Translations under genes and position numbers: made by a program | The notes under the pieces: generated by a model | Database searches by the model: none | What the model saw: only the letters and a program-made list of their open reading frames with translations | What the model was told of the DNA's origin: nothing | Source of the DNA: Bacteroidaceae bacterium | GTDB taxonomy: Bacteria; Bacteroidota; Bacteroidia; Bacteroidales; Bacteroidaceae | Direction: 5' to 3' | Assembly (NCBI GenBank): GCA_024682395.1 | Contig: JAIKZH010000081.1 | Coordinates: 6,623 to 70,622, forward strand | Length of the DNA: 64,000 bases | Shown here: in pieces, positions 4,234 to 63,501 of the stretch | Layout: each line of letters opens with the position of its first letter | How positions within the stretch are numbered: position 1 is the first letter of the stretch

Positions 4234-4272
4234 CAGAATTAATACAGAATTATAAATTCATAACTAATATTT

Positions 4273-6120: not shown

Positions 6121-6189
6121 CCAATACTCATTTGTGAGTATATAGATTAGTAAATAGTTATCCGATTATAAGTGGATAATAACCTATAA

Positions 6190-6221: not shown

Positions 6222-6278
6222 CATGTTTCTTATGATAATCCGGGCGTTCTTGATGAAAAGTCGCTAACGAGGATTATA

Positions 6279-15090: not shown

Positions 15091-15135
15091 ATATAGATTC
15101 TTTAAAATTATGCTACTTATATCTGATATCTTTTA

Positions 15136-15143
15136 CAAATGTA
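15136..15143 (-). promoter_or_regulatory. -7 box (TACATTTG on minus strand) for the M16 peptidase gene
   Basis: The plus strand reads CAAATGTA, 46 nt upstream of the ATG at 15090. Confidence 0.4.
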
Positions 15144-15181
15144 CTGATTTTTCTATTATTATTTGTCGTTTTTATAAAAAA

Positions 15182-15218
15182 TCATCCGTAATGTGTTTAA
15201 ATTCAACATTACGGATGA
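15182..15218 (-). terminator. Rho-independent terminator after the small OMP gene
   Basis: 13-bp perfect stem TCATCCGTAATGT/ACATTACGGATGA, followed on the minus strand by a T-run (plus-strand A-run 15176-15181). Confidence 0.75.
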
Positions 15219-15247
15219 CTAAGTTGTTCAAATAAAGAGGTTGGGAC

Positions 15248-15859
15248 TTATTTTGTTTTATTGTACTTTCTGTTGCCCCACTTATATCCTACGGATATTC
15301 CGATTAATGATTCCGATGTGAAGTCATTGTCGTTTGGACCGCATTCCTTTATTTTTTGCAGATTCCAGTCAAGTGATAATTGGAGTGAACCGTGTTTGAG
15401 TGCGATGTCTATACCTGCACCAACTGCTGCATTAAGTCCGAATTCATCGATAATATCCTTTACGTATTTGTCTTCTTTCCATAGAGAGAAATCTTTGCAA
15501 AGGCAAAAAGTATAACCTGTCTGACCATAAATGAATGGAGATACTTTCTTGGATGGTTGGAAGTAATACTTTGCATTAACGCTAAGTGGGAGAATCAACT
15601 CTTTTTGAAATCTCAAGTTGTCATGATTACGAAATAGGTCATCTTGGAATTTTGACATCTCAAAACCAATAGTCGGTCCTACACTGAAATAATCATTTAA
15701 TTCAATGTTTCCATCAAAAACTATACCGTTGATAATCCCCGGATCTGTTACTGATCGACTTCCTGTAACCTTTAAGGTAGGACTGAAACTCTGAGCTTGT
15801 GCTGTTTGAACACTTACAGCACATAAGACTGAAAATAAATAATAAAAACCTTTTTTCAT
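15248..15859 (-). CDS. Small outer-membrane beta-barrel protein (OmpW/opacity-like fold)
   Basis: Signal peptide (SVQTAQA-QS) and ~8 amphipathic strands rich in G/Y/F; 203 aa. Confidence 0.55.
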   Translation of the reverse strand: MKKGFYYLFSVLCAVSVQTAQAQSFSPTLKVTGSRSVTDPGIINGIVFDGNIELNDYFSVGPTIGFEMSKFQDDLFRNHDNLRFQKELILPLSVNAKYYFQPSKKVSPFIYGQTGYTFCLCKDFSLWKEDKYVKDIIDEFGLNAAVGAGIDIALKHGSLQLSLDWNLQKIKECGPNDNDFTSESLIGISVGYKWGNRKYNKTK

Positions 15860-15884
15860 AAAATATAAGATATAAAAAGACTAC

Positions 15885-15901
15885 CCCACATCTGATGTGG
15901 G
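15885..15901 (-). terminator. Short hairpin terminator after nadB
   Basis: CCCACA-tctga-TGTGGG, followed on the minus strand by tagTCTTTTT. Confidence 0.45.
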
Positions 15902-15940
15902 AATTATAATAGTTAAAAATTAAATAAAAATTCTTTTAAA

Positions 15941-17533: not shown

Positions 17534-17574
17534 GACTCACAGGAATTTTTTATCCTAAAGATGAATTGCGAGTG

Positions 17575-17582
17575 CAAAGGTA
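17575..17582 (-). promoter_or_regulatory. -7 box (TACCTTTG on minus strand) for nadB
   Basis: The plus strand reads CAAAGGTA, 42 nt upstream of the ATG at 17533. Confidence 0.45.
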
Positions 17583-17638
17583 ATGATATTTTGGTATTTG
17601 ACAATATACAAAATGTATTTTTATTATTAAAAGAATCA

Positions 17639-19426: not shown

Positions 19427-19465
19427 AATCAGTCAATAATAAAATTATAATAAATCTAAAAAGTC

Positions 19466-44267: not shown

Positions 44268-47144
44268 ATGAAACGATTTGCGGATATTCTTTTTGCAATA
44301 TTTATAGTTTTCTTTGTTGTTTCGTGTTCTACACAAAAGAATACGAGTGGCACTCGTTTCGTACATTCATTTAAGGCTAAGTACAATACATACTACAACG
44401 GAGCCTTGGCATATAATGAGGCTTATGAGGCTCAACGTACTGGTAATAAGGATAATTATCTTGAACTGCTTCCTTTTTATATAACAGGTAATAGAGGAAC
44501 CTTGGGTATCGGTAAGTCTGGATATGAACGTGCGATAGAAAAATCTCAGAAAACAATAAAACTGCATTCTATCACAAAAAAACCTGATATGAGTGCCTCC
44601 AAACGCCGTTCTCCTAAAGGTAAGGCATATTTATCGCAAAAAGAATACAATCCTTTCCTTTATAAAGCATGGTTCTTGATGGGAAAGGCTCAGATGCAGA
44701 AAGGCGATTATATCGAAGCAATATCTACATTTGCTTATATCCAGCGTCTGTATCCTAATAAACCTAATATTGTGGCATTGGCAAAATTACTTGAGGCTCG
44801 ATGTAATGCCGAGATGCAATGGTATTTTGCAGCTGAGAATATAATAAATGAAACACGTCGTGATAGTTTCCCTACTAAATACAATTCTTTGCGTGCTGGA
44901 ATATTAGCCGATTGTCAGTTGCAACAGAAACAATATACTGAAGCTATCCCAAATCTTATTCAAGCTATTAAACGTCAGAAAGGTACAATTGAAAAAGCAC
45001 GTCTGTATTACTTGCTTGGACAACTATATCATAAAACTGACCAACCTCAGTTGGCATACAAAGCATTTAAGAAGGTGTATGCTAATAACCCTCCTTACGA
45101 GTTGGAATTCAATGCAAGGATTCAACAAACTGAGGTGCTTTCAAAAGGACAAGCTAAGCAGATGATAGGTAAACTTAACCGTATGGCTAAGAATCCTAAG
45201 AACAAGAGTTATCTTGATCAGGTGTATTATGCTATGGGTAATATCTATCTTGCAAAAGGCGACACACTGAATGCGATATATGCATATAACGATGGAGTGG
45301 AGAAAAGTACACGAAGTGGTATTGAGAAAGGAATTGTCTGGTTGCATTTAGGTCAGTTATACTGGGAAAGAGAAGAATTTGTGAAGGCTCAGAAATGTTA
45401 TGCAGGTGTTGTGACTTTGTTGGATAAAGAACGCGATGACTATTTAGATATATCTGAGAGATCAAGAATCCTTGATGAACTCCTTCCTTATGCCTCTGCT
45501 GTCGAATTGCAAGATAGTCTTCAAACTCTTGCAAAGATGGATTCTTTAGAAAGAATGGCTGTTATCGAAAAAATCATCGAAAATCTAAAGAAAGAAGAGA
45601 AAAAAGATGCCAGAAAAATGGCTGAAGACCAGCAGGCTCAACAAGCTCAACAGGCAAATGAGTTGCGAAAGCAAAATAATAACGCAACAAACAATCAACG
45701 TTTGTCAAACAAACAGCAGGCTGCTCTTTGGTATTTCTATAATCCTTCTGTAGTGGCTTCGGGTAAAGCTGAATTCCAAAGGAAATGGGGCGAGATAGAG
45801 TTGGCTGACCAATGGAGACTAAATAGAAGAAATTTACGCGGAGATTCACGTAGATTCGATAATCCAAATGCTGCTAACGATGATTCAGGTGGACAAAGTG
45901 AAGAAGATCAGCAGTTTGAACAGGAGATGAGAAAAAAACAAGAATATGAAGCTGATCCTCATCATGTTGAATACTACCTAAAAGATATTCCGTTGACGGA
46001 AGAACAGATGGCGCAATCAAACGAAATGTTGGTGGATGGTCTGTTCAACTCTGCAATTATATATAAAGACCAAATGGAAAACTTTCCATTGGCAGAAAAA
46101 ACATTCTTGCGTATATGTAACGACTTCCCTAAATATGCTAATATGGATGAGGTTTACTATAACCTGTTCCAGTTGTATTCACGCTTTATGCATCCTTCCG
46201 AGGCAAGCACGTATAAACAACTGTTAATAAGGAAATATCCTAATAATGCTCATTCAATCTTACTCAAGGACCCTAAGTTCGAATATAAAGGCCGATATGG
46301 CAAACAAATTGAGGATTCGCTCTATCAAGATGCTTATCAGGCATATGTGTCGGATGATTATAATCGTGTGATTCGCAATGCTGATGAGGCAATAAAAGAG
46401 TATCCTGAAGGTGCAAACAGACCACGATTTATGTTCTTGAAGTCAATGAGCCAGTTAAACTTAGGACAACGTGACCAGTTTATGTCTTCTATGCGCAGTA
46501 TCGTCGAGAATTACCCTAAGAGTACTGTAAGCGATCTTGCAAATCAATATCTTACAGGTTTGAAGGATGGACGTATTCTCGCTAACGGAAAGATGGATAA
46601 TGGTTCTATCTGGGAAAGAAAAACTGGTGTTAGTGATGACGAGACTTTAGCCACAGATACAGTGTTTACAGATGACAAGATATGTAATTGGTCGTTTGTG
46701 ATCGCTTATGAACATGATAGTATCGATGTTAACCAATTATTATATGAGGTGGCAAGATACAATTTCTCTAATTTTTCAGTTCGTAGTTTCGATATCGAGA
46801 TTCAGCCAGGCGATGGAATAGATTTATTAAAAGTGTCTTCTTTCTTGAATTACGATGAGGCATATATCTATATCCATAAGATCATGAATGATAAACAAAT
46901 GGCATATAAATTAGAAGGTCTCAAGATGTTTATTATATCAGACGACAACCTGAAGAAAATCATGAAGGGACTCAGCTTCGCTGATTATTTCGACTTCTAT
47001 GAGAAACGATTCGATCGAATCGGACATCTCAAACTTGATGATAGTATTCTTGATGAACCAACAAATATTCCAGATCCAGAGGATATGGTTGAGGATGAAG
47101 AATATTTTGATGATTTTGAAGAGGAAGAAAACTATATTTTCTGA
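44268..47144 (+). CDS. porW: T9SS periplasmic TPR lipoprotein PorW/SprE
   Basis: Lipobox FFVVSC-STQKNTSGTRFVHSFKAKYNTYYNG (the conserved SprE/PorW N-terminus as I recall it), TPR repeats, a Q-rich low-complexity tract and an acidic C-terminus. ATG 44268 (MKRFADILF...) is preferred over the listed GTG at 44232. Confidence 0.75.
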   Translation: MKRFADILFAIFIVFFVVSCSTQKNTSGTRFVHSFKAKYNTYYNGALAYNEAYEAQRTGNKDNYLELLPFYITGNRGTLGIGKSGYERAIEKSQKTIKLHSITKKPDMSASKRRSPKGKAYLSQKEYNPFLYKAWFLMGKAQMQKGDYIEAISTFAYIQRLYPNKPNIVALAKLLEARCNAEMQWYFAAENIINETRRDSFPTKYNSLRAGILADCQLQQKQYTEAIPNLIQAIKRQKGTIEKARLYYLLGQLYHKTDQPQLAYKAFKKVYANNPPYELEFNARIQQTEVLSKGQAKQMIGKLNRMAKNPKNKSYLDQVYYAMGNIYLAKGDTLNAIYAYNDGVEKSTRSGIEKGIVWLHLGQLYWEREEFVKAQKCYAGVVTLLDKERDDYLDISERSRILDELLPYASAVELQDSLQTLAKMDSLERMAVIEKIIENLKKEEKKDARKMAEDQQAQQAQQANELRKQNNNATNNQRLSNKQQAALWYFYNPSVVASGKAEFQRKWGEIELADQWRLNRRNLRGDSRRFDNPNAANDDSGGQSEEDQQFEQEMRKKQEYEADPHHVEYYLKDIPLTEEQMAQSNEMLVDGLFNSAIIYKDQMENFPLAEKTFLRICNDFPKYANMDEVYYNLFQLYSRFMHPSEASTYKQLLIRKYPNNAHSILLKDPKFEYKGRYGKQIEDSLYQDAYQAYVSDDYNRVIRNADEAIKEYPEGANRPRFMFLKSMSQLNLGQRDQFMSSMRSIVENYPKSTVSDLANQYLTGLKDGRILANGKMDNGSIWERKTGVSDDETLATDTVFTDDKICNWSFVIAYEHDSIDVNQLLYEVARYNFSNFSVRSFDIEIQPGDGIDLLKVSSFLNYDEAYIYIHKIMNDKQMAYKLEGLKMFIISDDNLKKIMKGLSFADYFDFYEKRFDRIGHLKLDDSILDEPTNIPDPEDMVEDEEYFDDFEEEENYIF

Positions 47145-47174: not shown

Positions 47175-48740
47175 ATGAATACTGATAATTACAATGCAAC
47201 CTTATTATGGGTTGATGACGAAATAGAGTTGCTTAAAGCTTATATCATTTTCCTTGAGAAAAAAGGATATAAGGTGGTAACTGCTACAAATGGACGCGAT
47301 GCTGTGGATATGTGCAGCGAGCAAACATTTGATATCATATTCTTGGATGAAAATATGCCAGGTATCAGTGGATTGGAAACTCTTTCACTTATAAAAGAGA
47401 TTAATTCAACTATACCTATTGTGATGGTTACAAAGAGCGAAGAGGAGAATATTATGAATCAGGCAATAGGACAGAAAATTGCTGATTATCTCATAAAACC
47501 CGTGAATCCATCGCAAATTCTGCTAACTTTGAAGAAACATCTTCATAAACGTGAGATAGAGAGTGAGGTTACTGATACCTCATACCGTCAGAACTTCCAG
47601 AAGATAGCCTTACAGATAAATGATTCATATACACTTGATGACTGGAAGGATGTGTATAGGAAACTTGTGTTTTGGGAATTGGAACTCAGTACAACCAATA
47701 GTGAGATGAGTGAGATGCTCAAAATGCAGAAAGCTGAGGCTAATCAAGAATTTGCTAAGTTTATTCGTAAAAACTATATGAAATGGATGGACGAACCTGA
47801 TAATCGTCCGTTAATGAGTCCTGATATATTTAAAAATAAGGTTTTCCCTCTTCTTAACAAAGGCGAAAAGGTCTTTGTGATTGTATTTGATAATTTCAGA
47901 TATGATCAATGGAGAGTGTTAAGTCAGGATCTTGCCGATGACTTCGTCTTTGAGGAAGATTTATATTTGAGCATCTTACCAACTGCCACTCAATATGCGC
48001 GTAATGCTATATTCGCAGGATTGATGCCAACTCAGATTGCTCAATATTTTCCTGAATTATGGGTAGATGAGAACGAGGAGGAAGGTAAAAACTTAAACGA
48101 GGCTCCACTTATACAAACCCATTTGGAACGATTCCGCCGACATGAGAAATTCTCATATAATAAGGTTAATCATGCAAGTGATAGCGAAAAACTATTGAGC
48201 CAGTTTAATTCTTTATTACATAACGAACTAAATGTTATTGTGATAAACTTTATCGATATGCTCTCGCACGCAAGAACCGAGTCGAAGATGGTGCGTGAAT
48301 TGGCTTCCGATGAAACTGCATATCGAAGTATCACACAGTCGTGGTTCCGTCATTCTCCTATCCGAGAACTCTTCGATTTGCTCGCACAAACCGATGCACA
48401 TATTATAATAACTACAGATCATGGTTCGATAAAAGTAAATAACCCTATAAAGGTTATAGGCGACAAAAATACCAATACAAACCTAAGATATAAATTGGGT
48501 AAGAACCTTGGATATAATCCAAAAGAAATATTTGAGATACGTGATCCTAAACGTGCTTCACTTCCTTCTCCTAATATCAGTACAACCTATATTTTTGCGC
48601 AGAAGGACGATTTCTTCGCTTATCCCAACAACTACAACTATTATGCAAATTATTATAAGAATACATTTCAACATGGCGGAGTAAGTATGGAAGAAATGCT
48701 GATACCGCTTGTTTCACTTCAAAGTAAAAAAAGAAAATGA
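47175..48740 (+). CDS. porX: T9SS response regulator PorX (receiver domain plus PglZ/alkaline-phosphatase-like domain)
   Basis: Receiver [11 protein letters not shown]...[11 protein letters not shown]...VTKSEE. The ~350-aa C-terminal part is PglZ-like ([15 protein letters not shown]). It sits directly after porW. Confidence 0.8.
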
Positions 48741-49150
48741 TAATACAGATTGATTCAGTAGAATACATTCATGAAGCCGCCAAACAATTTATTAATGAAA
48801 TGGGGGCTAATAAATTGTTTGCTTTCTATGGTAAAATGGGGGTAGGTAAAACAACCTTCATCAAAGCAATATGTGAGGAACTTGGAGTAACCGATGTTAT
48901 TAATTCCCCTACATTTGCTATTGTTAATGAATACCTCGATAAGGATAAACAACAAATATACCATTTCGACTTCTATAGAATAAAGAAGCCAGAAGAGGTT
49001 CTGGATATCGGTTTCGAAGACTATATCTATAGTGACTGCCTTTGTTTTATGGAATGGCCTGAATTGATAGGCGATTATCTTCCTGACGAGACTGTCCGTG
49101 TGTATATAGAGGAATTAGATAACGGAACACGTGTTGTCAGAACAGAGTAA
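48737..49150 (+). CDS. tsaE: tRNA threonylcarbamoyladenosine biosynthesis ATPase TsaE
   Basis: Walker [29 protein letters not shown]. Its ATGA start overlaps the porX stop. Confidence 0.85.
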
Positions 49151-49184
49151 ACCGAAGTCATATATAATAATATAGTATATGGTG

Positions 49185-49204
49185 CGGGGGTATTCCCCGA
49201 TTTT
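49185..49204 (+). terminator. Weak hairpin terminator candidate after tsaE
   Basis: CGGGG-gtatt-CCCCG followed by ATTTT. Confidence 0.35.
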
Positions 49205-49237
49205 AGTGTCTTAAACTTTATCAATTTTTATTTAGGT

Positions 49238-52200
49238 ATGGAAGATTTCGTACATTTACATGTACATACACAATATTCAATTCTCGATGGTCAGGCCAGT
49301 ATATCTCGCTTGGTAGATAAAGCAATTGCTGACGGTCAAAAAGGACTTGCTGTCACCGACCACGGAAATATGTTTGGAATCAAAGAATTCTTTAATTATG
49401 TAAAGAAGGTAAAGGGAAAGAATCCCGATGTTGATTTTAAACCTATTTTCGGTTGCGAGGTGTATTGTGCGCGAAGAGGATTGACTATTAAGGATGAAAA
49501 GATTGATAGAAGTGGATGGCACCTTATTCTGCTTGCGAAAAACTCTGTTGGATATCATAATCTTGTAAAAATTGTTAGTAAAGCATGGACTGACGGTTTT
49601 TATTTGCGTCCACGTACAGATCACGAAGAACTGAAGAAACATAGTGAGGGAATAATATGTTGTTCTGCTTGTATTGCAGGTGAAGTCCCTGCTTATGTGC
49701 TCGACAATCAGATAGATAAGGCTGAGGAGTCTATCGAGTGGTTCAAAGAAGTTTATGGCGATGATTATTATCTTGAGTTACAACGTCATGAAGTTAAAGA
49801 TCCCAACCAGATAGCAAATCGTGAAACATTCCCTTTGCAGCAACGTGCTAATCGTGTGTTGATAGAATTGGCAAATAAACATAAAGTGAAATTAGTATGT
49901 ACTAACGATGTGCATTTCGTGGATGAAGAAAATGCCGAAGCGCACGACAGATTGCTTTGTGTTAGTACTGGAGCTGATTTGGATAGTACTCAACGTATGC
50001 TTTATTCAAAGCAAGAATGGATGAAGACTAAGGCTGAGATGAATGAAATATTCAGTGATGTCCCTGAGGCTCTTGCTAATACTGTTGAGGTGTTGAATAA
50101 GGTTGAGGTTTACGATATCGACCACGCTCCTATCATGCCTAATTATGACATACCTAAGGAATTCGGTACTGAGGAAGAATACCGAAGCCGAATTACTGAA
50201 CAGGAACTCTTTGACGAGTTTACCCGTGATGAAAATGGTAATGTGATAATGACAGAGGAGGAGGGCAAAAAGAAGATTGCCAAGATGGGAGGATATGAGA
50301 AACTCTACCGAATAAAGTTTGAGGCCGATTATCTTGCTAAAATCACATACGAAGGTGCTAAGAAATATTATGGCGATCCTATACCTGAAAATGTGCTGCA
50401 ACAAATAAACTTTGAGTTGCACGTGATGAAGACAATGGGTTTCCCTGGCTACTTCCTTATTGTTCAAGACTATATACGCGCTGCAAGAAACGAACTTGGC
50501 GTGTGGGTCGGTCCTGGACGTGGTAGTGCGGCAGGAAGTGTTGTTGCCTATTGCTTGGAAATCACTAAGGTCGATCCTATCAAATACGACTTGCTGTTTG
50601 AACGATTCCTTAACCCAGACCGTATCAGTTTGCCTGATATCGATGTCGATTTCGATGATGATGGTCGAGGTAAGGTGCTGCAGTGGGTTACAAACAAATA
50701 CGGAGCAGAAAAAGTTGCACATATTATAACCTATGGTTCTATGGCAACGAAGTCTGCTATCAAAGACGTTGCTCGAGTGCAGAAAGTACCTCTTTCTGTG
50801 GTTAATGCGTGGTGTAAGGCAATCCCCGATAAGTTGCCCGATGGCAAGAAAATGAATCTGAAGAATGTGGTTGAATGCGTCCCTGAAATTAAAGATGCTG
50901 CCACATCTCCCGATAAAAGCTTTAGGGATACTATAAAATATGCCCAAATGCTCGAAAACAACGTAAGAAATACGGGTGTTCATGCTTGTGGTACCATTAT
51001 TTGTCGAGACGATATTACCGATTGGGTACCTGTAAGTACTGCCGTTGATAAGGACGGACAGATGGTGAACTGTACTCAGTACGATGGTCATGTCATTGAG
51101 GAAACTGGATTGATCAAGATGGACTTCCTCGGACTTAAGACCTTGTCGCAATTGAAGGAGGCTGTTGATATTATCAGGGAAAGTATGGGCGTTGAGGTCG
51201 ATGTGGATTACTTAGATATCGAAGACCCAGTTTCTTATCAACTTTATTGCGACGGACGTACAGTCGGTACGTTCCAGTTTGAATCGGCAGGAATGCAGAA
51301 ATATTTGCGTGAGTTACAACCTCATGTATTTGAAGACTTGATTGCGATGAATGCTCTGTATCGTCCAGGACCTATGGATTATATCCCTGATTTCATCGAT
51401 AGAAAATTGGGCAGAAAGCCGATCGAGTATGATATTCCAGTGATGGAGAAATATCTGAAGGAAACCTATGGTATCACAGTCTATCAAGAACAGGTGATGC
51501 TCTTGTCGCGTCTTCTTGCTGATTTTACACGTGGTGAGAGTGATACCTTACGTAAGGCCATGGGTAAGAAGCAGAAAGATAAACTGGATATGCTTCATCC
51601 GAAATTTATAGAGGGCGGACAGAAGAATGGACATGATAAAGATATTCTCGAGAAAATATGGGCAGACTGGGAGAAATTTGCATCTTATGCTTTCAATAAG
51701 AGTCATGCCACATGTTATTCGTGGGTAGCCTATCAAACTGCCTACATGAAGGCAAACTATCCTTCACAATGGATGGCAGCTGTCATGAGTCGAAGTTTGG
51801 CTGATATCAGTGAAATTTCCAAACTGATGGATGAATGTAAGTCGATAGGAATAAAGACGTTGGTTCCGGATGTGAATGAAAGTAATCTTAAATTCACAGT
51901 TAATACAAATGGTGATATCCGATTTGCTTTGGCTGCAATAAAAGGTGTGGGTGAGAACGCTGTTATGTCTATTATAAATGAGCGTAAGAAAGATGGACCA
52001 TATACCGATGTGTTTAATCTTGTGGAACGTGTGAATCTTTCTTTATGTAACCGTAAGACTCTCGAAAGTTTAGCCTTGGCTGGTGCTTTCGACTCGTTCG
52101 GTTTGCCACGCGAAACATATGTGACTAAGGTGAATTCGAACGATACATTCCTTGATGTGCTTGTGCGTTACGGAAACAGATATCAGGCCGATCAGTCGGA

Positions 52201-52930
52201 AGCTAAAGGTGGATTGTTCGGCGAAATAGTCATCGAGACTGTTCATCCTGAAATACCAAAAGATGTTGAACTTTGGAGCACCATGGATCGCCTTGAGAAA
52301 GAACGTGAGTTGGTAGGAATATACCTCTCAGCTCATCCTCTTGATGATTATGCTGTGATTTTAAAGTATGTGTGCAACACACGCATGTCTGAATTGGCAG
52401 ACCTGACTAAGGTCTGTGACAGAGCTGAAGTCATTTGTGGCGGTTTGGTCACTGAAGTAAAATCGGGAATGACAAAGAAAGGTACTCCATGTGGTTTCGT
52501 AACCATTCAGGATTTCTCTGGTAGTTACCGATGGGCATTGTTTGGCAAAGATTGGTTAGATCAGAAGAGTAGATTCGAGGAAGGAATCGGAGTGTTTATA
52601 AAAGCTAAGGTTCAACCTCGTAAGTACGACAAAAACACACTGGAAATTGTTATTTTATCGGTAGATTTATTGTCTGAGATGAAAGATACTGCTGTTTCTG
52701 AAGTTTCAGTGGCGGTGAACCTGAATAAAATAAACGAACAGAAAATAGCCGACTTGCTTGAATTGATTTATCAGCATCCTGGACAATCCGAACTTATTGT
52801 AAGATTCAAGGATATAAATGGTCGTCTTCTTTCGATGAAATCGAAGACACACAAGATCTCTGTACATCAAGATTTGTTGAATTTTGCAGAAGAAAATTCC
52901 GAAATGATAAGACTGACGATTAATCAGTAA
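49238..52930 (+). CDS. dnaE: DNA polymerase III alpha subunit
   Basis: PHP domain FVHLHVHTQYSILDG, palm/fingers LPDIDVDF and GLIKMDFLGLKTL, C-terminal OB fold; 1230 aa. Confidence 0.95.
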   Translation: MEDFVHLHVHTQYSILDGQASISRLVDKAIADGQKGLAVTDHGNMFGIKEFFNYVKKVKGKNPDVDFKPIFGCEVYCARRGLTIKDEKIDRSGWHLILLAKNSVGYHNLVKIVSKAWTDGFYLRPRTDHEELKKHSEGIICCSACIAGEVPAYVLDNQIDKAEESIEWFKEVYGDDYYLELQRHEVKDPNQIANRETFPLQQRANRVLIELANKHKVKLVCTNDVHFVDEENAEAHDRLLCVSTGADLDSTQRMLYSKQEWMKTKAEMNEIFSDVPEALANTVEVLNKVEVYDIDHAPIMPNYDIPKEFGTEEEYRSRITEQELFDEFTRDENGNVIMTEEEGKKKIAKMGGYEKLYRIKFEADYLAKITYEGAKKYYGDPIPENVLQQINFELHVMKTMGFPGYFLIVQDYIRAARNELGVWVGPGRGSAAGSVVAYCLEITKVDPIKYDLLFERFLNPDRISLPDIDVDFDDDGRGKVLQWVTNKYGAEKVAHIITYGSMATKSAIKDVARVQKVPLSVVNAWCKAIPDKLPDGKKMNLKNVVECVPEIKDAATSPDKSFRDTIKYAQMLENNVRNTGVHACGTIICRDDITDWVPVSTAVDKDGQMVNCTQYDGHVIEETGLIKMDFLGLKTLSQLKEAVDIIRESMGVEVDVDYLDIEDPVSYQLYCDGRTVGTFQFESAGMQKYLRELQPHVFEDLIAMNALYRPGPMDYIPDFIDRKLGRKPIEYDIPVMEKYLKETYGITVYQEQVMLLSRLLADFTRGESDTLRKAMGKKQKDKLDMLHPKFIEGGQKNGHDKDILEKIWADWEKFASYAFNKSHATCYSWVAYQTAYMKANYPSQWMAAVMSRSLADISEISKLMDECKSIGIKTLVPDVNESNLKFTVNTNGDIRFALAAIKGVGENAVMSIINERKKDGPYTDVFNLVERVNLSLCNRKTLESLALAGAFDSFGLPRETYVTKVNSNDTFLDVLVRYGNRYQADQSEAKGGLFGEIVIETVHPEIPKDVELWSTMDRLEKERELVGIYLSAHPLDDYAVILKYVCNTRMSELADLTKVCDRAEVICGGLVTEVKSGMTKKGTPCGFVTIQDFSGSYRWALFGKDWLDQKSRFEEGIGVFIKAKVQPRKYDKNTLEIVILSVDLLSEMKDTAVSEVSVAVNLNKINEQKIADLLELIYQHPGQSELIVRFKDINGRLLSMKSKTHKISVHQDLLNFAEENSEMIRLTINQ

Positions 52931-56814: not shown

Positions 56815-59800
56815 ATGAGTAAGGTACTATCATACAATAATAAAAGTAACGGTGAAGATTGGTTTGATATCACCCGCCAATATAGTAGGGATGAAATCGA
56901 TTCAATCACAGATTCTTCAGCTGGACTTACAGATAATCCACGTACAGCTATTCCAAGCCCGTTTGCACAGATGGATCTTGTGAAGAATGCTTTTCTTCGT
57001 CTTTCTTATAATGTGAATTTAAGAGGAAACCAACAGGATGAGAAACTTGTGTCGCAGGCTTTAGATATAGCACAGTTGTTCTTTAATATCAATGAATTGC
57101 GTGATAAAGTCAGGATTATAGAGTGGAATCGTTCTGTGAATCTTGAACAACTCAAGACTTCTCCAGAACATCGATTGTTAGGAGAAACACTGGATATGTA
57201 TCTTCGACAGGACAGCGAGGCTTATAACTTCAACCTAATGAATAAACTCTCGTTTATAGCATATAATAATCATGTATTAGGATGTACTTCACCAGCTTCG
57301 TTGTTTATGGCCTCACCAGATGCCACAGCAGGTGTATTTGATATTCCGATTGAACAAGGAATCAACTTGTTTGATCAATGGCGTCCTCTTTATAAACGTG
57401 AGCCTAAATTCGTTAAGTATATATATGCTCTTTTTACAGCATTCCCAATATTGAAACAACGTCTCGAAGCGGTAAATAAATATCTTATCACAAACTTCCT
57501 TATACTTAATCTCGATTTGCAGCGTGAGATTCTGCAAGAGATAGGTAATCCTCAGAGTATCAATGAGGATGAGACAGAAAAAGCTCGTAATTATCTTGAT
57601 ACCAATTACGAGACAACTGAGGAAGGTATGGAGGTTCTCGGTGTGCCTTTGTTCCAGAGCCGTACAGAAGATGTGATGGCAAATATAGCTAAGAGCGATT
57701 TTGTAATCAACCCAACACATAAGTTCGATGAGAATGAAAAACTGCCGTTAGTTCTTCAGAATAATCTAAATGCGCCAGTTACAGATCCGTTCAAATATAT
57801 CACTTATGATTGGGACGATTCAATAAAAATACGTCCAGAAGATTATGCCGTAAGTCCTGATAAACGTGTACTTCCTGCTACCACACATCAGTATCCATGG
57901 CTTACCGATGACGACTTTCTGCAACCATCACTTATCCGTCTTGATTTCCCTATCGATAAGGATTGTTTCTTCGACGGAAATCTGAAGATAAGTAATGGAG
58001 ATAATGACATTAAACATTATCTTTTGCCGTTGAAACCGCTGTTTTTCAAATATTTTGATACACGTGATTTATGGGGTACAATTGCAGGAAAACAACGTAT
58101 GGAGATACAAACATCACGTATCGGACAAAGTCGTATCGTGAAAGTAATCTTGAGAATTCCTGTTCAGAAACACGGAAAATATATAACATTGTCGCGTACA
58201 TATGTTGAATCAAAAGACGGACAACTCTTGTTCGCACCTGAAACAGGACAAGGTTCATTCGTCACCCTTTCATTTGCAATAGCAATATTCCCATTTGTCC
58301 GTACTGAAGGATACAACCAATACAAAGTACAGGTTGTTGACCGTGCGTTAGGACAATTTGAGAACTACAAGATAAAACTCGAATTCTATAAAGACGGATT
58401 TAATAAGCGTATTGACGATTCACAACTACAGAAATGTCGTGAGAGAAGTCTTAAGTCTCAGAAGATGGTAGGATCAAATTATTATAGTGTCAACACTGAT
58501 TTTGATTATACTAAGGTAGTTGTTGAGAATGAGGTCGGTGCTAAGTTTGGTGAAGGAATCATTTGTCCAAAATGGGAAAATGAAGTTCAAGGTGCCGATG
58601 CTTATACTTTTGCTGTTGACTTCGGTACAACAAATACTCATATTGAGGTTATGAAAGGTGACGGATCACCAGAGCCGTTGAAAATCGATCCTCAGCAACG
58701 TAGCCGATTGGTTGCAACTCTGTATAATGGTGAGAACTTGCTTTATGATGTTATCATCAAACAAGAGTTTGCGCCAAAAGTCATTGCTACTGATTATGGA
58801 TTCCCACAACGAACAGTATTGTCTGAATGTGAACGTGTTGATGCCGCAAATGTCGATGAAATCATAGCTTTGGGTGATGCAAATATACCGTTTATTTACG
58901 AGAAGGAATCTATTGGATATGGAAATAGAATAATTCCAAACTTGAAATGGTCGTCTGATATCTCCAATAGTAAACGCATCAGTTGTTATCTCACTGAGAT
59001 TGCTTTACTCATGCGCTCAAAAGTATTGTTGGAACAAGGCAATCTGAAAGAAACAAGACTGGTGTGGTTCTATCCTCTTAGTATGGAAACCGGTAAAATC
59101 AGTCAGTTGCGACAGATATGGGCTAAGACCTTCCAAAATGTATTCGGAATTCCTGTACGTGAAGGTATCAACCTGATTGAGATGCCTGAGTCGGTGGCAC
59201 CATATTATTATTATAAGAACTCATCACAGTTTAAAGGTGCGGCTTCTACCGTTGCCTCTATTGACATAGGTGGTGGCTCAAGTGATATTGTAGTATATCA
59301 ACGCGAAAATGAGTCTAAGATACCAAATGTGGTTACATCATTCCGTTTTGCAGCTAACACCCTCTTCGGAGATGCTTTCTCAGAGGTACCTCAAGGTAAT
59401 CATAATCCGATGCTTATAAAATATGTGGATTATTTCCGTATGTTGTTTAATAATGATGAGGATTTATATGGTGAGTTATTAGGTATATTGGATGATATAG
59501 TCGATAAAAAGAAATCAGAGGATATCAATGCCTTCTTGTTCTCTATAGAGTCCAACAAGGCTACAAAGGGTAACGATGTGTTCTCATATAATTTACGATT
59601 GAATCAGGATTCAATGCGTAAGATTATATTTGTGTATTTCTACGTCACATTGGTTTATTATGTAGCAAACCTTATGAAGTTCAAGGGACTTGACATGCCA
59701 CGTTGTATCATGTTCAGTGGTACTGGTTCGAAAGTTCTTAAGATTGTAGGAAGCAACCGCGAACTGAATAACCTTACACAGATTGTTATTGAACGTATTT

Positions 59801-60318
59801 ATGGTCAGGAGTACACTGGCGATGGCTTTTCTATCGTAATTGAAGAGAATGAGCCAAAACAGATTACTTGTCGTGGTGCATTGCTTCAAGTGAAATCGGA
59901 AATGGGCTGTAAGGCAATCAATGATATCAACAGTAAGATGGACGATTTCAAGGAACCATTGAAATCGAATTATTCGATGATTTCGAAACCAGTTCTTCAA
60001 TACAAAGATGTTACAGATGCAAATGTGGTGAACGAGATTATCCAGAAAGTTCGCGAATATAACAAATTCTTCATTCAGTTATGTGAAGACATACATGTTT
60101 CAGACAGATTCCTCGTAAGCGGAGAAGCATGGAGCATGTTTAAAGAGAATGTAAATAAAGATCTTGAACACCATTTCATACAAGGATGGAACTTCGTGAA
60201 TAAGAATCAGACAGTGGTAAACGAAACTGATCCAGTTCCTGATGCTTTGTTCTTCTATCCTATTATTGGCTCAATCAGAAATAACTTAATAGATAACATA
60301 AAAGAAAAAGACTTATGA
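56815..60318 (+). CDS. Large two-part protein: unassigned ~590-aa N-terminal region plus C-terminal Hsp70/actin-like (ASKHA) ATPase domain, cluster gene 4
   Basis: Phosphate-1 motif FAVDFGTTNTHIEV (D602; nt 58618-58638). Phosphate-2 motif VASIDIGGGSSDIVVY (D817; nt 59263-59286). Adenosine motif IMFSGTGSKVLKIVG (aa 965-979; nt 59707). Spacings of ~215 and ~150 aa resemble the DnaK NBD (~190 and ~140). No signal peptide or TM. Confidence 0.65.
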   Translation: MSKVLSYNNKSNGEDWFDITRQYSRDEIDSITDSSAGLTDNPRTAIPSPFAQMDLVKNAFLRLSYNVNLRGNQQDEKLVSQALDIAQLFFNINELRDKVRIIEWNRSVNLEQLKTSPEHRLLGETLDMYLRQDSEAYNFNLMNKLSFIAYNNHVLGCTSPASLFMASPDATAGVFDIPIEQGINLFDQWRPLYKREPKFVKYIYALFTAFPILKQRLEAVNKYLITNFLILNLDLQREILQEIGNPQSINEDETEKARNYLDTNYETTEEGMEVLGVPLFQSRTEDVMANIAKSDFVINPTHKFDENEKLPLVLQNNLNAPVTDPFKYITYDWDDSIKIRPEDYAVSPDKRVLPATTHQYPWLTDDDFLQPSLIRLDFPIDKDCFFDGNLKISNGDNDIKHYLLPLKPLFFKYFDTRDLWGTIAGKQRMEIQTSRIGQSRIVKVILRIPVQKHGKYITLSRTYVESKDGQLLFAPETGQGSFVTLSFAIAIFPFVRTEGYNQYKVQVVDRALGQFENYKIKLEFYKDGFNKRIDDSQLQKCRERSLKSQKMVGSNYYSVNTDFDYTKVVVENEVGAKFGEGIICPKWENEVQGADAYTFAVDFGTTNTHIEVMKGDGSPEPLKIDPQQRSRLVATLYNGENLLYDVIIKQEFAPKVIATDYGFPQRTVLSECERVDAANVDEIIALGDANIPFIYEKESIGYGNRIIPNLKWSSDISNSKRISCYLTEIALLMRSKVLLEQGNLKETRLVWFYPLSMETGKISQLRQIWAKTFQNVFGIPVREGINLIEMPESVAPYYYYKNSSQFKGAASTVASIDIGGGSSDIVVYQRENESKIPNVVTSFRFAANTLFGDAFSEVPQGNHNPMLIKYVDYFRMLFNNDEDLYGELLGILDDIVDKKKSEDINAFLFSIESNKATKGNDVFSYNLRLNQDSMRKIIFVYFYVTLVYYVANLMKFKGLDMPRCIMFSGTGSKVLKIVGSNRELNNLTQIVIERIYGQEYTGDGFSIVIEENEPKQITCRGALLQVKSEMGCKAINDINSKMDDFKEPLKSNYSMISKPVLQYKDVTDANVVNEIIQKVREYNKFFIQLCEDIHVSDRFLVSGEAWSMFKENVNKDLEHHFIQGWNFVNKNQTVVNETDPVPDALFFYPIIGSIRNNLIDNIKEKDL

Positions 60319-61586
60319 AAAAATTATTATTTTTAGCCATAGGCATGTGGTTTTTTGCCATTGGCTGCGTAAGTGCTCAGTCATTGGAACAAAAGAGAAT
60401 CTGTGCTCTCAAATGGACGCTTCAGCAAACCTTTTATAACAAAGCCGAAGGACAGCAATTGGCTAAGATGGATGTTACAGAGTTCAAATCTTTCGATGAA
60501 TTCAAGAAAAATGAACTTGTTAGCAAATTGATGAAAAAAGTCAGTGATAAAACTGATTTGAAACGTGTAAACTCAATCTTGAATGCTAAAAACGACGACG
60601 AATTGTCTTCAAGTGTTCCTTCTGGAGGAAAAAAAGAATATCAAGCCGATGTTGAGAAAATGAAGTCTCAAGCACCTGCTGCTCAAGAAGAAACTGAAGA
60701 AGAAACTCCTGCCGTTGAGGAGGTCGTGGAAGATACAGCTACTACAGCTTCTGTGACTCCTATTAAAGATGAAGAGAATAATAACGAGGAAGCAGAGAAC
60801 GATGCAACTGCAGAAGAAGATGAAGAAGCAACGGCAACTGAAGGTATTGGCCTTTGGGGTGTTGTTCTTATCTCGTCTCTTGTTTATGTTATACTCACAA
60901 TTTGTTTGCTTCTCTTCAAACGTTCACGTTCTGTAGGAAGATCTGGCGGTGACGACCAAGGCGTAAGTCTTGAACAATATCGTTCAGAACGTCTTCGTCT
61001 TATCGAAAGAATCAAGGCAATTGAAATTGAACTTGAAAGCAAGAAAGACAATAACAGCAAGCCTGTTAAGGAACAACCACAGCCTGCTGTTCAACAACCT
61101 GTTGCTAAGGAAAAAGAAGTTGTTGCTCCAGTTCCAACTCCAAAGAAAGAACCTGCAAAAGTAAATGTAGAGCAAACTCTTTTCTCTTCACCAACTAAGG
61201 ATGAAGCACCTTCTGCAGAGGTCACTCCAATCATAACTCCAACAGAAACTCCTTCTTCAATCAAACCACGTCACACCACATCTATCATGTTCTTCCCAGT
61301 ACCAGTAGATGGTGTGTTCTCAAACGGAACAGAAGAAATAGAGGTTGGTAAGTCTTTGTATATGTTGAAAACAACTGATGGTCAGAATGCAACATTTACA
61401 ATCCTCAACACACCAGAGGCTATTGCTACAGCACTCATATCTCTTTCACAGATGGTAAAACCTGTATGTAAAATTATCAATACAGTTACCAATCCATTAG
61501 AAATCGTGACAGAGGGTCCTGGTACAGCTGTACGTGAGGGTGATACATGGAAAATGGTGACAAAATCTGTTGTACGTCTGATTTAA
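60315..61586 (+). CDS. Bitopic membrane protein (signal peptide, periplasmic domain, acidic tract, TM, coiled coil, Pro-rich linker, small C-terminal domain), cluster gene 5
   Basis: Signal peptide MKKLLFLAIGMWFFAIGCVSA-QS, an E/D/T-rich tract (aa ~125-175), a TM IGLWGVVLISSLVYVILTICLLLF followed by KRSRSVGRSGG (positive-inside), heptad-like LEQYRSERLRLIERIKAIEIELE, and a P/K/E/V-rich linker. Its ATGA start overlaps the gene 4 stop. Confidence 0.6.
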   Translation: MKKLLFLAIGMWFFAIGCVSAQSLEQKRICALKWTLQQTFYNKAEGQQLAKMDVTEFKSFDEFKKNELVSKLMKKVSDKTDLKRVNSILNAKNDDELSSSVPSGGKKEYQADVEKMKSQAPAAQEETEEETPAVEEVVEDTATTASVTPIKDEENNNEEAENDATAEEDEEATATEGIGLWGVVLISSLVYVILTICLLLFKRSRSVGRSGGDDQGVSLEQYRSERLRLIERIKAIEIELESKKDNNSKPVKEQPQPAVQQPVAKEKEVVAPVPTPKKEPAKVNVEQTLFSSPTKDEAPSAEVTPIITPTETPSSIKPRHTTSIMFFPVPVDGVFSNGTEEIEVGKSLYMLKTTDGQNATFTILNTPEAIATALISLSQMVKPVCKIINTVTNPLEIVTEGPGTAVREGDTWKMVTKSVVRLI

Positions 61587-61591
61587 AACAA

Positions 61592-61619
61592 AAAGCCAAA
61601 GGGTTTAACCTCTGGCTTT
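61592..61619. terminator. Hairpin shared by the end of the five-gene cluster (+) and the 3' end of tRNA-Arg (-)
   Basis: AAAGCCAAAGG-gtttaa-CCTCTGGCTTT (one mismatch). On the minus strand it is followed by TTTTGTTTTAAAT. Confidence 0.6.
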
Positions 61620-61626
61620 CTGATCG

Positions 61627-61698
61627 TACCTCCACTGAGAATCGAACTCAGATCTAATCTTTAGGAGAGATTTGTTCTATCCATTGAACTATGAAGGC
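61627..61698 (-). tRNA. tRNA-Arg (anticodon CCT)
   Basis: Hand-folded cloverleaf from the reverse complement: GCCTTCA-TA-GTTC-AATGGATA-GAAC-A-AATCT-CTCCTAA-AGATT-AGAT-CTGAG-TTCGATT-CTCAG-TGGAGGT-A. The acceptor stem has 7 bp (two G-U), the T-loop is TTCGATT, and the anticodon loop is CT-CCT-AA. CCA is not encoded. Confidence 0.85.
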
Positions 61699-61768: not shown

Positions 61769-62374
61769 ATGACATTTACAGAATTGTGTAACCAGATATT
61801 TGTCAAAGTAGTTAATGATTATCATTTACGTGATGACGTGAATCAGGATATGTTGAATCCATATGATAGAGGAACCATAGAATATGATTTATATGTGAAG
61901 ACATGGATTGACGCTGTACAATGGCATCTTGAGGATATTATCAGAAATCCTCATATCAATCCTATTGAAGCATTGGAAATCAAACGTCGCATCGATAAAA
62001 GTAATCAAGACCGTACAGACTTAGTTGAGAAGATTGACTCATATTTCCTTGAATATTATCATAATGTACATCCATTAGCAAATGCAACTATTAATACTGA
62101 GAGTCCTGCATGGGCAATCGACAGATTAAGTATTCTTGCTCTTAAGATATATCATATGCAGGAGCAGGTTGAGCGTGAGGATGCAACACCTGAACATCGT
62201 AAACGTTGTCAGGATAAATTGGATATTCTTCTTGAACAACGAGTTGACCTTTCTACAGCTATAGATCAACTACTTGATGATATCAAGAATGGTCGTAAGT
62301 ATATGAAGGTCTATCGTCAGATGAAGATGTACAACGATCCAAGTACAAATCCAATTCTCTATAAAAAACAATAA
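61769..62374 (+). CDS. DUF4254-like protein
   Basis: 201-aa soluble helical protein directly upstream of a GT9 gene. I recall this pairing as typical of DUF4254 in Bacteroidota; no catalytic motif recognised. Confidence 0.5.
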   Translation: MTFTELCNQIFVKVVNDYHLRDDVNQDMLNPYDRGTIEYDLYVKTWIDAVQWHLEDIIRNPHINPIEALEIKRRIDKSNQDRTDLVEKIDSYFLEYYHNVHPLANATINTESPAWAIDRLSILALKIYHMQEQVEREDATPEHRKRCQDKLDILLEQRVDLSTAIDQLLDDIKNGRKYMKVYRQMKMYNDPSTNPILYKKQ

Positions 62375-62496
62375 CGTATAAGAGTATTAAATAATATTCT
62401 TCCTGAATTAGTGAATTGAGGACGTTATGTATTATCCCATAGCACCTCAGTTCACTAATATATTAATAATAAACCATAATAACTCCATTAAATATA

Positions 62497-63501
62497 ATGA
62501 ATTTACTTGTAATGCGCTTTTCGGCAATGGGGGATGTTGCAATGACTGTTCCTGTTATTCATTCGCTTGCGCAAGCTCATCCTGAGGTGAAAATAACGGT
62601 TCTAACACGCGATTTCTTGGTGCCCTTCTATCAGTGGATGCCTAAGAATGTAACATGTATTGGTGTTAATCTAAAGGAATATAAAGGAGTTATTGGATTG
62701 GAACGTCTATATCGTCAACTCAAATCATATAATTTTGATGCTGTTGCCGATTTACACGATGTGTTGCGTACAAAATACTTGCGTACGCGTTTTTCTCTCA
62801 AACGAACTAAACTGGTTGTCATAGATAAAGGACGTCGGGAAAAACATGCATTGATTGGACATGGAATAGAATATGATTATCTTAAATCCATGTTTGAACG
62901 TTATCAAGAAACATTTATCGGATTGGGCTTGTTCTTCCCTTTGGCTTTTCAGGACTATAAAATAAAAGCTATGTTCTTGAAACCAAATCTGCCAATATCA
63001 ATATCCTCAAAACCATGTATTGGCGTAGCTCCTTTTGCTGCCCACGAGTGTAAGGTCTATCCTTTGGATAAGATGAAGGAAGTGGTGGATGGCTTGGCTG
63101 ATAATGGCTATCATGTATATCTTTTCGGGGCAGGTAAAGCCGAGAAAGAGATTCTTTCATCGTGGGAACGTGAGGATGTTGAATCGGTTGCAGGTAAGTT
63201 GGGCGGATTGACAAATGAGTTATTACTGATGAGCCGTCTGAAACTGATGATATCAATGGACTCAAGTAACATGCACATGGCAGCGATGATGGGTACACCA
63301 ACTTTGTCTATATGGGGAGCTACTCATCCGAAAGCAGGATTTCTGGCATGGCACCAGTCGTTGGACTCTGTGTTAAGTCTGGAATTACCATGTAAACCAT
63401 GCTCAATATATGGTAATAAACCATGTCAATATGGAGATTGTCGTTGTCTTGCTAATATCACACCACAGACTATAATTGATAAGTGTAATAAAATGATATA
63501 A
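62497..63501 (+). CDS. Glycosyltransferase family 9 (LPS heptosyltransferase-like)
   Basis: MNLLVMRFSAMGDVAMTVPV start, and DSSNMHMAAMMGTPTLSIWGATHP near the C-terminus, typical of GT9. Confidence 0.8.
   Translation: MNLLVMRFSAMGDVAMTVPVIHSLAQAHPEVKITVLTRDFLVPFYQWMPKNVTCIGVNLKEYKGVIGLERLYRQLKSYNFDAVADLHDVLRTKYLRTRFSLKRTKLVVIDKGRREKHALIGHGIEYDYLKSMFERYQETFIGLGLFFPLAFQDYKIKAMFLKPNLPISISSKPCIGVAPFAAHECKVYPLDKMKEVVDGLADNGYHVYLFGAGKAEKEILSSWEREDVESVAGKLGGLTNELLLMSRLKLMISMDSSNMHMAAMMGTPTLSIWGATHPKAGFLAWHQSLDSVLSLELPCKPCSIYGNKPCQYGDCRCLANITPQTIIDKCNKMI

Follow-up and report, generated by a model that had tools for sequence, protein, structure and literature searches.

A large, unannotated ASKHA ATPase family with a new architecture, encoded beside a putative tubulin-like gene in a conserved Bacteroidota gene module

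What kind of protein places an Hsp70/actin-like ATPase behind almost 600 residues of no recognised type, and what might it do beside a putative tubulin-like protein and several membrane proteins? The question is raised by g7, an open reading frame (ORF) of 1167 residues with an ATG start (56815..60318, + strand) in a 64,000-nucleotide stretch of a Bacteroidaceae bacterium genome (assembly GCA_024682395.1, contig JAIKZH010000081.1), hereafter the window. A first-pass annotation, made from the sequence without database searches, had proposed an ASKHA-type ATPase for the C-terminal half of g7, had left the N-terminal region unassigned and had described its partnership with a tubulin-like GTPase and a bitopic membrane protein as unusual. 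We find that g7 is a member of a real, unnamed and large ASKHA family with a new architecture, which extends across the Bacteroidota and includes abundant human and rumen Prevotella, yet lacks a Pfam or NCBIfam model and is annotated as 'hypothetical protein'.

The three hallmark motifs on which the ATPase proposal relied, DFGTTNT, DIGGGSSD and FSGTGS, were recovered exactly at residues 602-608, 817-824 and 967-972, and PESVAP was identified as a fourth ASKHA landmark (Table 1). E792 of PESVAP pairs in alignment with the catalytic-site Glu of the Hsp70 motif NEPTAA, and the phosphate-2 motif can be aligned to MreB, Hsc70 and FtsA. Spacing between the three hallmark motifs is 215 and 152 residues, compared with approximately 186 and 147 in DnaK, and in both wording and spacing the motifs appear nearest to DnaK rather than to MreB or actin, as the earlier claim of Hsp70-like spacing would have it. 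In a conservation alignment of 40 family members, 30-75% identical to the window g7, D602, G604, T605, E792, P796, D817, G819, G820, D824, S968 and G969 are invariant, with G971 and K973 nearly so. Because the key residues are invariant or nearly so at this level of divergence and an ASKHA fold is predicted, the motifs are beyond chance. With the motifs of the nucleotide site intact, ATP binding and hydrolysis by g7 are predicted.

The two-lobed fold implied by these motifs was found in an AlphaFold2 model of g7 based on an alignment of 40 diverse members (predicted local distance difference test, pLDDT, 86.1; predicted template-modelling score, pTM, 0.75), in which pLDDT fell below 50 solely in residues 1-46. 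This model replaced an earlier one built from 22 close homologues, which had a pLDDT of 63.5 and no significant Foldseek match. Both lobes show the order beta-beta-beta-alpha-beta-alpha-beta-alpha, that is, the duplicated ASKHA core. From residue 596, lobe I is modelled as two strands flanking the phosphate-1 loop, an insert, a helix, a strand, a helix, a strand and the connect-1 helix, and lobe II as three strands from phosphate-2, a helical insert, the strand of the adenosine motif, two helices, a strand and a helix. On our reading of the model, lobe I would comprise residues 596-614 and 716-800 around an insert at 615-715, and lobe II residues 813-843 and 957-1025 around a helical insert at 844-956.

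Structural comparison placed this core firmly amongst the ASKHA proteins, with Foldseek E-values for the fold of 4e-9 to 8e-8. There were 373 matches in the PDB at E<=1e-3, and all 50 of those listed were ASKHA proteins. The best was the actin-like filament protein BeeR (E=3.9e-9, template-modelling (TM) score by target 0.52), with the nucleotide-binding domains of Hsp70, Hsc70, DnaK and BiP from E=4.1e-9 (TM 0.43-0.49), ParM at E=2.5e-8 and MreB at E=4.2e-8 (TM 0.50). Against BFVD, 24 of the 25 best matches were Hsp70, Hsp70-like or unnamed entries. Full-length DnaK fitted the g7 model no better than its nucleotide-binding domain alone (TM by target 0.32 vs 0.45).

Sequence profiles pointed in the same direction at sub-threshold scores. 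Compared with PDB sequences, the family profile matched MreB best (E=0.0028), followed by proteins including actin, FtsA and BiP, all below threshold; Hsc70 nucleotide-binding domains were matched at E of approximately 0.02-0.03, with profile positions 758-877 lying on Hsc70 residues 145-276 and ES-AP opposite NEPTAA, and the listed matches were all ASKHA proteins except for one chance C2 domain. When the 40 members were scanned individually, sub-threshold Pfam matches were to FtsA (29), Ppx-GppA (17), EutA (15), MreB (12), SrfB (10), Hydantoinase_A (7) and MutL (6), the best E-values being 4.9e-5 for FtsA, 0.0049 for MreB and 0.0071 for SrfB. Most of these families belong to the Pfam actin-like ATPase clan. 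Comparisons by hhalign of the family profiles with single DnaK, MreB and FtsZ sequences, which make for weak tests, gave local motif alignments only, including one of the g7 family with MreB at 80% probability over the phosphate-2 region. The whole window g7 reached no Pfam, NCBIfam or PADLOC family above threshold (FtsA 12.6 bits vs a cut-off of 31.8; SrfB 11.4 bits over 23 residues vs 27.1), its halves scanned apart at E<=10 returned only SrfB (E=0.075) and FtsA (E=0.18), both on 17-23 residues around DIGGG, and a phmmer search of the PDB yielded one chance match and nothing else.

Because the predicted fold and these sequence profiles agree, the assignment of the C-terminal half of g7 to the ASKHA superfamily is secure. 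The narrower label 'Hsp70-like' holds as far as the ASKHA fold, and no further: Hsp70-like and actin/MreB/ParM/FtsA-like affinities cannot be told apart, with equal Foldseek ranks and sub-threshold Pfam matches that favour FtsA. Like the Hsp70/actin branch of the superfamily, g7 has a two-lobed core with phosphate-1, connect-1, phosphate-2 and adenosine motifs in canonical order and at Hsp70-like spacing. It differs in that the core is the C-terminal half of the protein, after 590 conserved residues and before a helical extension of approximately 140 residues, in that both lobe inserts are family-specific and in that no family model is reached above threshold. An Hsp70 substrate-binding domain is also missing, in agreement with the first-pass annotation, and only helices (residues 1029-1161) follow the ATPase.

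No known domain was matched to the N-terminal 590 residues in scans of Pfam, NCBIfam and PADLOC, with the PDB sequence profile or by Foldseek, in which the 50 PDB matches listed and the top of the BFVD list were to ASKHA proteins, and no 19-residue window anywhere in g7 exceeded the transmembrane hydrophobicity threshold, so that the earlier description of a region lacking any recognised domain or membrane segment is borne out. Mean column conservation in the N-terminal 200 residues (approximately 0.5) equals that of the ATPase core, and the most conserved stretch of the whole family is T-[AS]-I-P-S-P-F-A at residues 44-51 (IPSPFA, nucleotides 56950-56967), a motif type that served as the search pattern for further family copies. 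The modelled region consists of a helical part with a small sheet (residues ~50-265), an extended yet confidently placed part (265-428) and approximately eleven strands (429-590). With the poor earlier model, Foldseek returned tandem immunoglobulin (Ig)/FnIII-like proteins (EpoR, Fab) at non-significant E-values of 0.01-0.03, and with the good model the first non-ASKHA matches in BFVD were Ig-like herpesvirus glycoproteins, also non-significant (E >0.01); the query span was not reported in either case, and the beta-rich part (429-590) is the likely source. The 590 residues may represent a new domain. Derivation from a detached C-terminal extension of the long FtsZ-like protein FtsZl1 was considered and rejected on the lack of an hhalign match to Deinococcus deserti FtsZl1.

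This architecture is widespread and constant. A word-indexed search recovered 1355 relatives of g7; the 120 listed are full length and 57-100% identical, those with names are 'hypothetical protein' entries of Prevotella, Hoylesella or Bacteroidaceae, and no precomputed Pfam domain is assigned to any of the 120. When a profile was searched against 1.84 billion representatives (50% identity), 1527 clusters were matched at E<=1e-3, 880 of them at E<=1e-30; nearly all of the 150 clusters listed are 1100-1220 residues long and match the profile end to end. Therefore, the architecture of g7 is fixed and does not reflect a chance fusion. Pairwise identity is 25-35% between most lineages, 45% between two Hymenobacter copies and 28% between two Prevotella copies, the low values within genera indicating old paralogous lineages or transfer. 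A second Prevotella lineage, found in an uncultured Prevotella sp. (locus L008, 1065-4472), shares only 28% identity with the remaining Prevotella copies, suggesting an old paralogue or transfer within the genus. Literature searches found no paper on this Bacteroidota family or its gene combination.

Conservation extends to the gene neighbourhood, supporting the earlier view of an unusual operon partnership, which proved to be shared across the Bacteroidota together with the architecture itself. In the window, g7 is the fourth of five same-strand genes (g4-g8) separated by short gaps and located directly after dnaE. Synteny was compared across 13 named genome loci, all from Bacteroidota (four classes) and drawn from Prevotella, Sodaliphilus, Rikenellaceae, Flavobacterium psychrophilum, Gillisia, Sphingobacterium, Spirosoma, Rudanella, Solirubrum and Hymenobacter. 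In every locus with DNA directly upstream of g7, a g6 orthologue (32-61% identical) is found there, a g4 orthologue lies upstream in 11 of the 13, the order g4-g5-g6-g7 is kept, and related loci have a gene of 124-160 residues at the g5 position.

The tubulin-like label of g6 relies on its loop motifs and on family scores that are all sub-threshold. GGTG (residues 9-12, T1), GSPNIG (~154-159, T3) and SSIFGGTGAAG (189-199, T4) are invariant in 13 orthologues, and in an alignment with E. coli FtsZ the motifs match the T3 and T4 loops in register, though not significantly. Pfam scores were E=0.0017 for Tubulin and E=0.0067 for Tubulin_2 (16.2 bits vs a cut-off of 27), and CetZ (3zid) was matched at E=0.094, at the signature motif. 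That motif alone was aligned when the g6 family was compared with D. deserti FtsZl1 by hhalign, and a g6-family profile search returned close orthologues only, none with a precomputed Pfam domain, and no annotated FtsZl1.

Of the remaining partners, g4 is a predicted lipoprotein whose start is probably the ATG at 53104, because this start yields a lipoprotein signal peptide ending in the lipobox Cys that is invariant in orthologues. Its family also has an invariant E-x-S-x-S, resembling a metal ion-dependent adhesion site (MIDAS), and an invariant D222; assignment as a vWA protein gained no support beyond this MIDAS-like motif, there being no vWA match by PDB profile or Pfam. No match was found between g4 and the Deinococcus gene upstream of FtsZl1. 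The stop codon of g7 overlaps the start of g8 by 4 nucleotides (TTATGA), as the first-pass annotation had noted, and its term 'bitopic' is correct for g8 because the protein has a signal peptide and one transmembrane segment. From the N-terminus, g8 comprises a signal peptide/lipobox, an acidic periplasmic region, the transmembrane segment (~177-200), a coiled coil, a P/T-rich linker and a cytoplasmic C-terminal domain (324-422). This last domain is the part common to the 11 family sequences found downstream of g7 (the window included), which are nearly always membrane-anchored, either in the long form (signal peptide, periplasmic part, transmembrane segment and cytoplasmic domain) or in a short form with an N-terminal anchor. 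The predicted periplasmic residues 100-175 of g8 (60615-60840) are strongly acidic and of low complexity (32% D+E), and residues 245-325 (61050-61290) form a P/T/K/E-rich linker on the cytoplasmic side. A weak Pfam match to Rifin on residues 22-200 is probably an artefact of composition.

Seven loci (L007, L009-L013 and L015), spanning Flavobacteriia, Cytophagia, Sphingobacteriia and Rikenellaceae, carry downstream of g7 both a MotA-like gene (436-560 residues) and a MotB/OmpA-like gene (198-242 residues). Their best PADLOC matches are ZorB1 (E=8e-13) and ZorA2 (E=8.6e-9), with the MotA-like proteins of L007, L012 and L013 matching ZorA and the MotB/OmpA-like proteins of L010, L012 and L013 matching ZorB. 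In these lineages the genes after the module recall the Zorya system, but scores of approximately 15-28 bits fall far below the curated NCBIfam cut-offs of 250-500, and no ZorC, ZorD, ZorE, ZorF or ZorG was found. Neither the window nor its close relatives have the pair, which may be a distinct stator family dedicated to the module. Because the Prevotella and Sodaliphilus copies, like that of the window, lack it, proton-motive coupling cannot be general.

Several copies of the module sit amongst ordinary genes. The window copy is followed by a DUF4254 gene and a GT9 heptosyltransferase gene (61769-63501), and a relative with a 73% identical g7 (locus L017) keeps this pair (15087-16716), whilst its upstream side differs, with a Na/H exchanger in the place of dnaE. 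Further copies, in Prevotella and Hoylesella, are likewise found among ordinary genes, and such housekeeping surroundings fit a stable chromosomal gene. No match was detected in 50,697 GenBank phage records, and PLSDB gave a single match, to a 1.77-Mb Prevotella replicon. Eight IMG/VR contigs nevertheless carry the whole module. Only one of their flanks gave informative family matches, that of L030 (UViG_3300007650_000246; flanks 2187-6397 and 17490-21701), an element found in four metagenomes, which encodes DUF3408, a MobA/VirD2 relaxase and three tyrosine integrases. Its module includes a ZorA-like gene and two ZorB-like genes and ends in a Trypsin_2 peptidase. This fits the cargo of an integrative mobilizable element that IMG/VR has classed as viral, rather than an evident phage. 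A phage origin of the module was rejected on its absence from GenBank phages, with the relaxase and integrases of L030 noted in its flank.

Several published systems resemble the module in part. Makarova & Koonin 2010 defined FtsZl1 (now Pfam Tubulin_2) and proposed a membrane-remodelling role together with vWA, new GTPase and OmpA-family proteins (PMC2875224). Additional file 5 of that study lists Deinococcus operons of the order hyp-hyp-FtsZl1-MotA/ExbB-OmpA, and in Magnetospirillum magneticum (amb2957-amb2961) the order vWA-FtsZl1-vWA-vWA followed by a 1626-residue 'COG0443 DnaK' (PMC2875224). The latter link is tabulated but is not mentioned in the main-text parts examined (PMC2875224); this protein may be an independent giant Hsp70-fold protein tied to a tubulin-like gene. 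The Bacteroidota module shares with FtsZl1 operons a divergent tubulin-like gene accompanied by membrane and periplasmic proteins and, in some lineages, MotA/ExbB and OmpA partners. It differs in the size of g6 (508 residues vs approximately 900-1200 in FtsZl1) and its score below the Tubulin_2 cut-off, in having no detected vWA domain or new GTPase, in the absence of OmpA and MotA/ExbB partners from the window, and in the lack of similarity between Deinococcus proteins and either g4 or the N-terminal region of g7.

Such systems were later recast by Kaur et al. 2020 as regulated conflict systems that have DO-GTPases and GAP1 at their base; for the tubulin and HSP70 components present in some of them, an NTP (nucleoside triphosphate)-dependent responder/effector-type role was proposed (PMC7159879). 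They too are membrane-proximal and multi-gene, with tubulin-family and HSP70-family proteins assigned to distinct neighbourhood themes and vWA proteins and peptidases in some, but they are described mainly from Firmicutes and Actinobacteria and encode a standard HSP70 with GrpE (PMC7159879). As g4-g8 contain no Walker A motif or P-loop and match no GTPase family, the module is not a DO-GTPase/GAP1 system. SrfB (PF07520), compared through its Pfam model, resembles g7 in its length of approximately 1000 residues and in adjoining the gene of a bitopic membrane protein, SrfA, and its model touches DIGGG in 10 of the 40 g7 relatives; however, SrfABC is proteobacterial and reported as a toxin complex, and membership of g7 in SrfB was rejected on a score below the gathering cut-off that covers 23 residues only.

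On balance, we lean towards a conserved complex at the envelope, with g7 as its ATP-driven subunit on the cytoplasmic side and a tubulin-like protein as the partner of g7. The complex would consist of the periplasmic lipoprotein g4, the polytopic g5, the tubulin/FtsZ-like GTPase g6, g7 itself and the membrane-anchored adaptor g8, whose cytoplasmic C-terminal domain would be co-produced with g7. Binding and hydrolysis of ATP between the lobes of g7 would make them open and close, as in Hsp70, FtsA and MreB, and this movement would reposition the N-terminal module of g7. Acting by way of the g8 cytoplasmic domain, and perhaps of its own disordered but conserved N-terminal peptide, g7 could then control assembly or membrane attachment of a g6 polymer in the manner of FtsA, with g4, g5 and the periplasmic part of g8 linking the complex to the envelope. 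Where present, the ZorAB/MotAB-like peptidoglycan-anchored proton channel might add proton-driven or envelope-sensing input. By analogy, g6 and g7 would be a second FtsA/FtsZ-like pairing of a tubulin fold with an actin fold, tied to envelope proteins rather than to the divisome. Likenesses to FtsA-FtsZ are the adjacency of tubulin-like and actin-fold genes, the rank of FtsA as the most frequent sub-threshold Pfam match (29/40) and a membrane link, here through g8; the differences are the absence of detectable orthology, the lack of an amphipathic membrane helix in g7 itself, and partners that are a lipoprotein, a protein with four transmembrane segments and a bitopic protein instead of divisome components.

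A number of observations weigh against this proposal. The contacts of g7 with g6 or g8 are a step that we infer; the FtsA analogy draws on gene adjacency and on weak FtsA matches limited to the phosphate-2 region; and no test of g6 as a tubulin-like protein reached its threshold. On the side of function, the lack of any domain match in the N-terminal 590 residues counts against it, as does the absence of a ZorAB-like pair beside the window, Prevotella and Sodaliphilus copies and from the rest of the window. Divergence within genera and carriage on integrative mobilizable elements are, moreover, no less compatible with an accessory or conflict system than with a housekeeping one. The main rival, which we regard as possible but clearly less probable, is an anti-phage or conflict system in which envelope sensing triggers NTP-dependent assembly of tubulin-like and actin/Hsp70-fold responders or effectors; to the same doubtful degree, the sensor would be the ZorAB-like pair, a part that in Prevotella would fall to the lipoprotein and membrane proteins by themselves. 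The best matches of the MotA/MotB-like genes to ZorA/ZorB in seven loci are consistent with this, as are the strong divergence of the family even within genera, the eight IMG/VR contigs with the relaxase, integrases and terminal Trypsin_2 peptidase of L030, and the precedent of conflict systems that combine tubulin homologues with HSP70-family proteins (PMC7159879). Set against these are the lack of any PADLOC match for the window module proteins, the low ZorAB-like scores and the absence of the pair from the window, the failure to find a nuclease or usual effector (the trypsin-like peptidase of some loci excepted), the missing P-loop GTPase that would make it a DO-GTPase/GAP1 system, the lack of matches in phage records, and the housekeeping setting of the window and its Prevotella-like relatives, in which downstream synteny is kept at 73% identity.

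Three further roles are less likely than either the envelope complex or a conflict system. That g7 is itself an ATP-dependent filament former of the ParM/MreB/BeeR type, which would be compatible with the envelope complex, seems improbable: BeeR was the best Foldseek match, ParM and MreB scored like Hsp70, and MreB was both the best PDB sequence match and the partner of the phosphate-2 alignment, but ASKHA proteins that polymerise cannot be told from those that do not by a fold match, and neither the MreB_Mbl nor the FtsA family model was reached above threshold. To our knowledge, a permanent 590-residue N-terminal module and 140-residue C-terminal extension, such as those of g7, are not seen in known actin-like filament formers, which also speaks against this role. 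Still more doubtful is a role as a chaperone or remodeller of the Hsp70 type, with the N-terminal region standing in for the C-terminal substrate-binding domain. Motif wording (DxGTTN, DxGGGxxD and the NEPTAA-like PESVAP) and spacing are closest to Hsp70 and many of the best Foldseek matches are its nucleotide-binding domains, yet Pfam HSP70 matched neither the window g7, nor either half, nor any of the 40 members, a substrate-binding domain and an Hsp70-type interdomain linker are lacking, the window operon and the related loci examined contain no J-domain or GrpE gene, and full-length DnaK fitted no better than its nucleotide-binding domain. A metabolic ASKHA enzyme (a kinase, Ppx/GppA-type phosphatase, hydantoinase-like enzyme or EutA-like reactivase) with unrelated neighbours is very improbable; the sub-threshold Pfam matches to Ppx-GppA (17/40), EutA (15/40) and Hydantoinase_A (7/40) would allow it, but all 50 listed Foldseek matches lie in the Hsp70/actin/MreB/ParM branch rather than among sugar kinases or Ppx, the gene order with tubulin-like and membrane proteins is kept across four Bacteroidota classes, and no metabolic genes are conserved nearby.

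Within the envelope-complex proposal, possible final roles are envelope or membrane remodelling, envelope surveillance and defence. A broader and more speculative proposal is that in Bacteroidota, including dominant gut Prevotella, a second, non-divisome pair of tubulin and actin folds is the cytoplasmic engine of an undescribed trans-envelope machine, composed of a lipoprotein, a protein with four transmembrane segments, a bitopic adaptor and, ancestrally, a ZorAB-like proton-driven stator; the ATPase cycle would be coupled to this machine by the N-terminal region of g7, as a new class of domain. If true, this would represent either a new housekeeping apparatus for envelope remodelling or a new, Zorya-related class of immunity with cytoskeletal polymers as effectors. 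The module brings both major folds of cytoskeletal NTPases, the tubulin one putatively, together with envelope proteins in a single conserved operon, to which many lineages add a Zorya-like stator. It offers an entry point to the role of the FtsZ-like (FtsZl1-type) systems predicted in 2010 and to the coupling of MotAB/ZorAB-type stators to non-flagellar cytoplasmic machinery.

Table 1. Coordinates of g7, its parts and motifs, the other module genes and the features that follow them (window positions).
Feature	Position	Strand	Remarks
g7	56815..60318	+	conserved N-terminal region of unknown kind plus ASKHA (actin/Hsp70-fold) ATPase
g7 residues 1-46	56815..56952	+	predicted disordered (pLDDT <50) yet conserved; W16 invariant
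g7 residues 47-590, N-terminal region	56953..58584	+	confidently folded; no domain match
g7 ASKHA ATPase core, residues 596-1028	58600..59898	+	model, Foldseek, PDB profile, Pfam per member
g7 phosphate-1 motif DFGTTNT, residues 602-608	58618..58638	+	D602, G604, T605 invariant
g7 connect-1 motif PESVAP, residues 791-796	59185..59202	+	E792, P796 invariant
g7 phosphate-2 motif DIGGGSSD, residues 817-824	59263..59286	+	D817, G819, G820, D824 invariant
g7 adenosine motif FSGTGS, residues 967-972	59713..59730	+	S968, G969 invariant; G971, K973 nearly so
g7 C-terminal helical extension, residues 1029-1167	59899..60315	+	conserved F-F-Y-P at 1146-1149; not an Hsp70 substrate-binding domain
g4, predicted lipoprotein, ~517 residues	53104..54657	+	first module gene; ATG at 53104, longest ORF from GTG at 53026
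g5, small membrane protein, 148 residues	54704..55150	+	four hydrophobic segments
g6, divergent tubulin/FtsZ-like, 508 residues	55261..56787	+	motifs plus sub-threshold profile scores
g8, membrane protein, 423 residues	60315..61586	+	overlaps g7 by 4 nucleotides
G+C-rich 14-pair hairpin	61589..61622	.	directly after g8; scan scored a terminator on the minus strand
tRNA-Arg(CCT)	61626-61698	-	convergent, after the hairpin

The hairpin after g8 probably marks the end of the operon, acting as a two-way terminator shared with the convergent tRNA-Arg gene. Upstream of the module, positions 47175-52930 of the window encode PorX (a type IX secretion system response regulator with a PglZ domain; NCBIfam 830 bits), TsaE with a 4-nucleotide overlap, and then DnaE, housekeeping genes that identify the window as part of a Bacteroidota chromosome. 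In two Prevotella loci (L001, 14043-14852; L004, 12146-13051), the short g8 homologue is followed by a gene for a conserved protein with a zinc ribbon and one transmembrane segment, which has a weak relative in the window, outside the module, at approximately 44286-44489.

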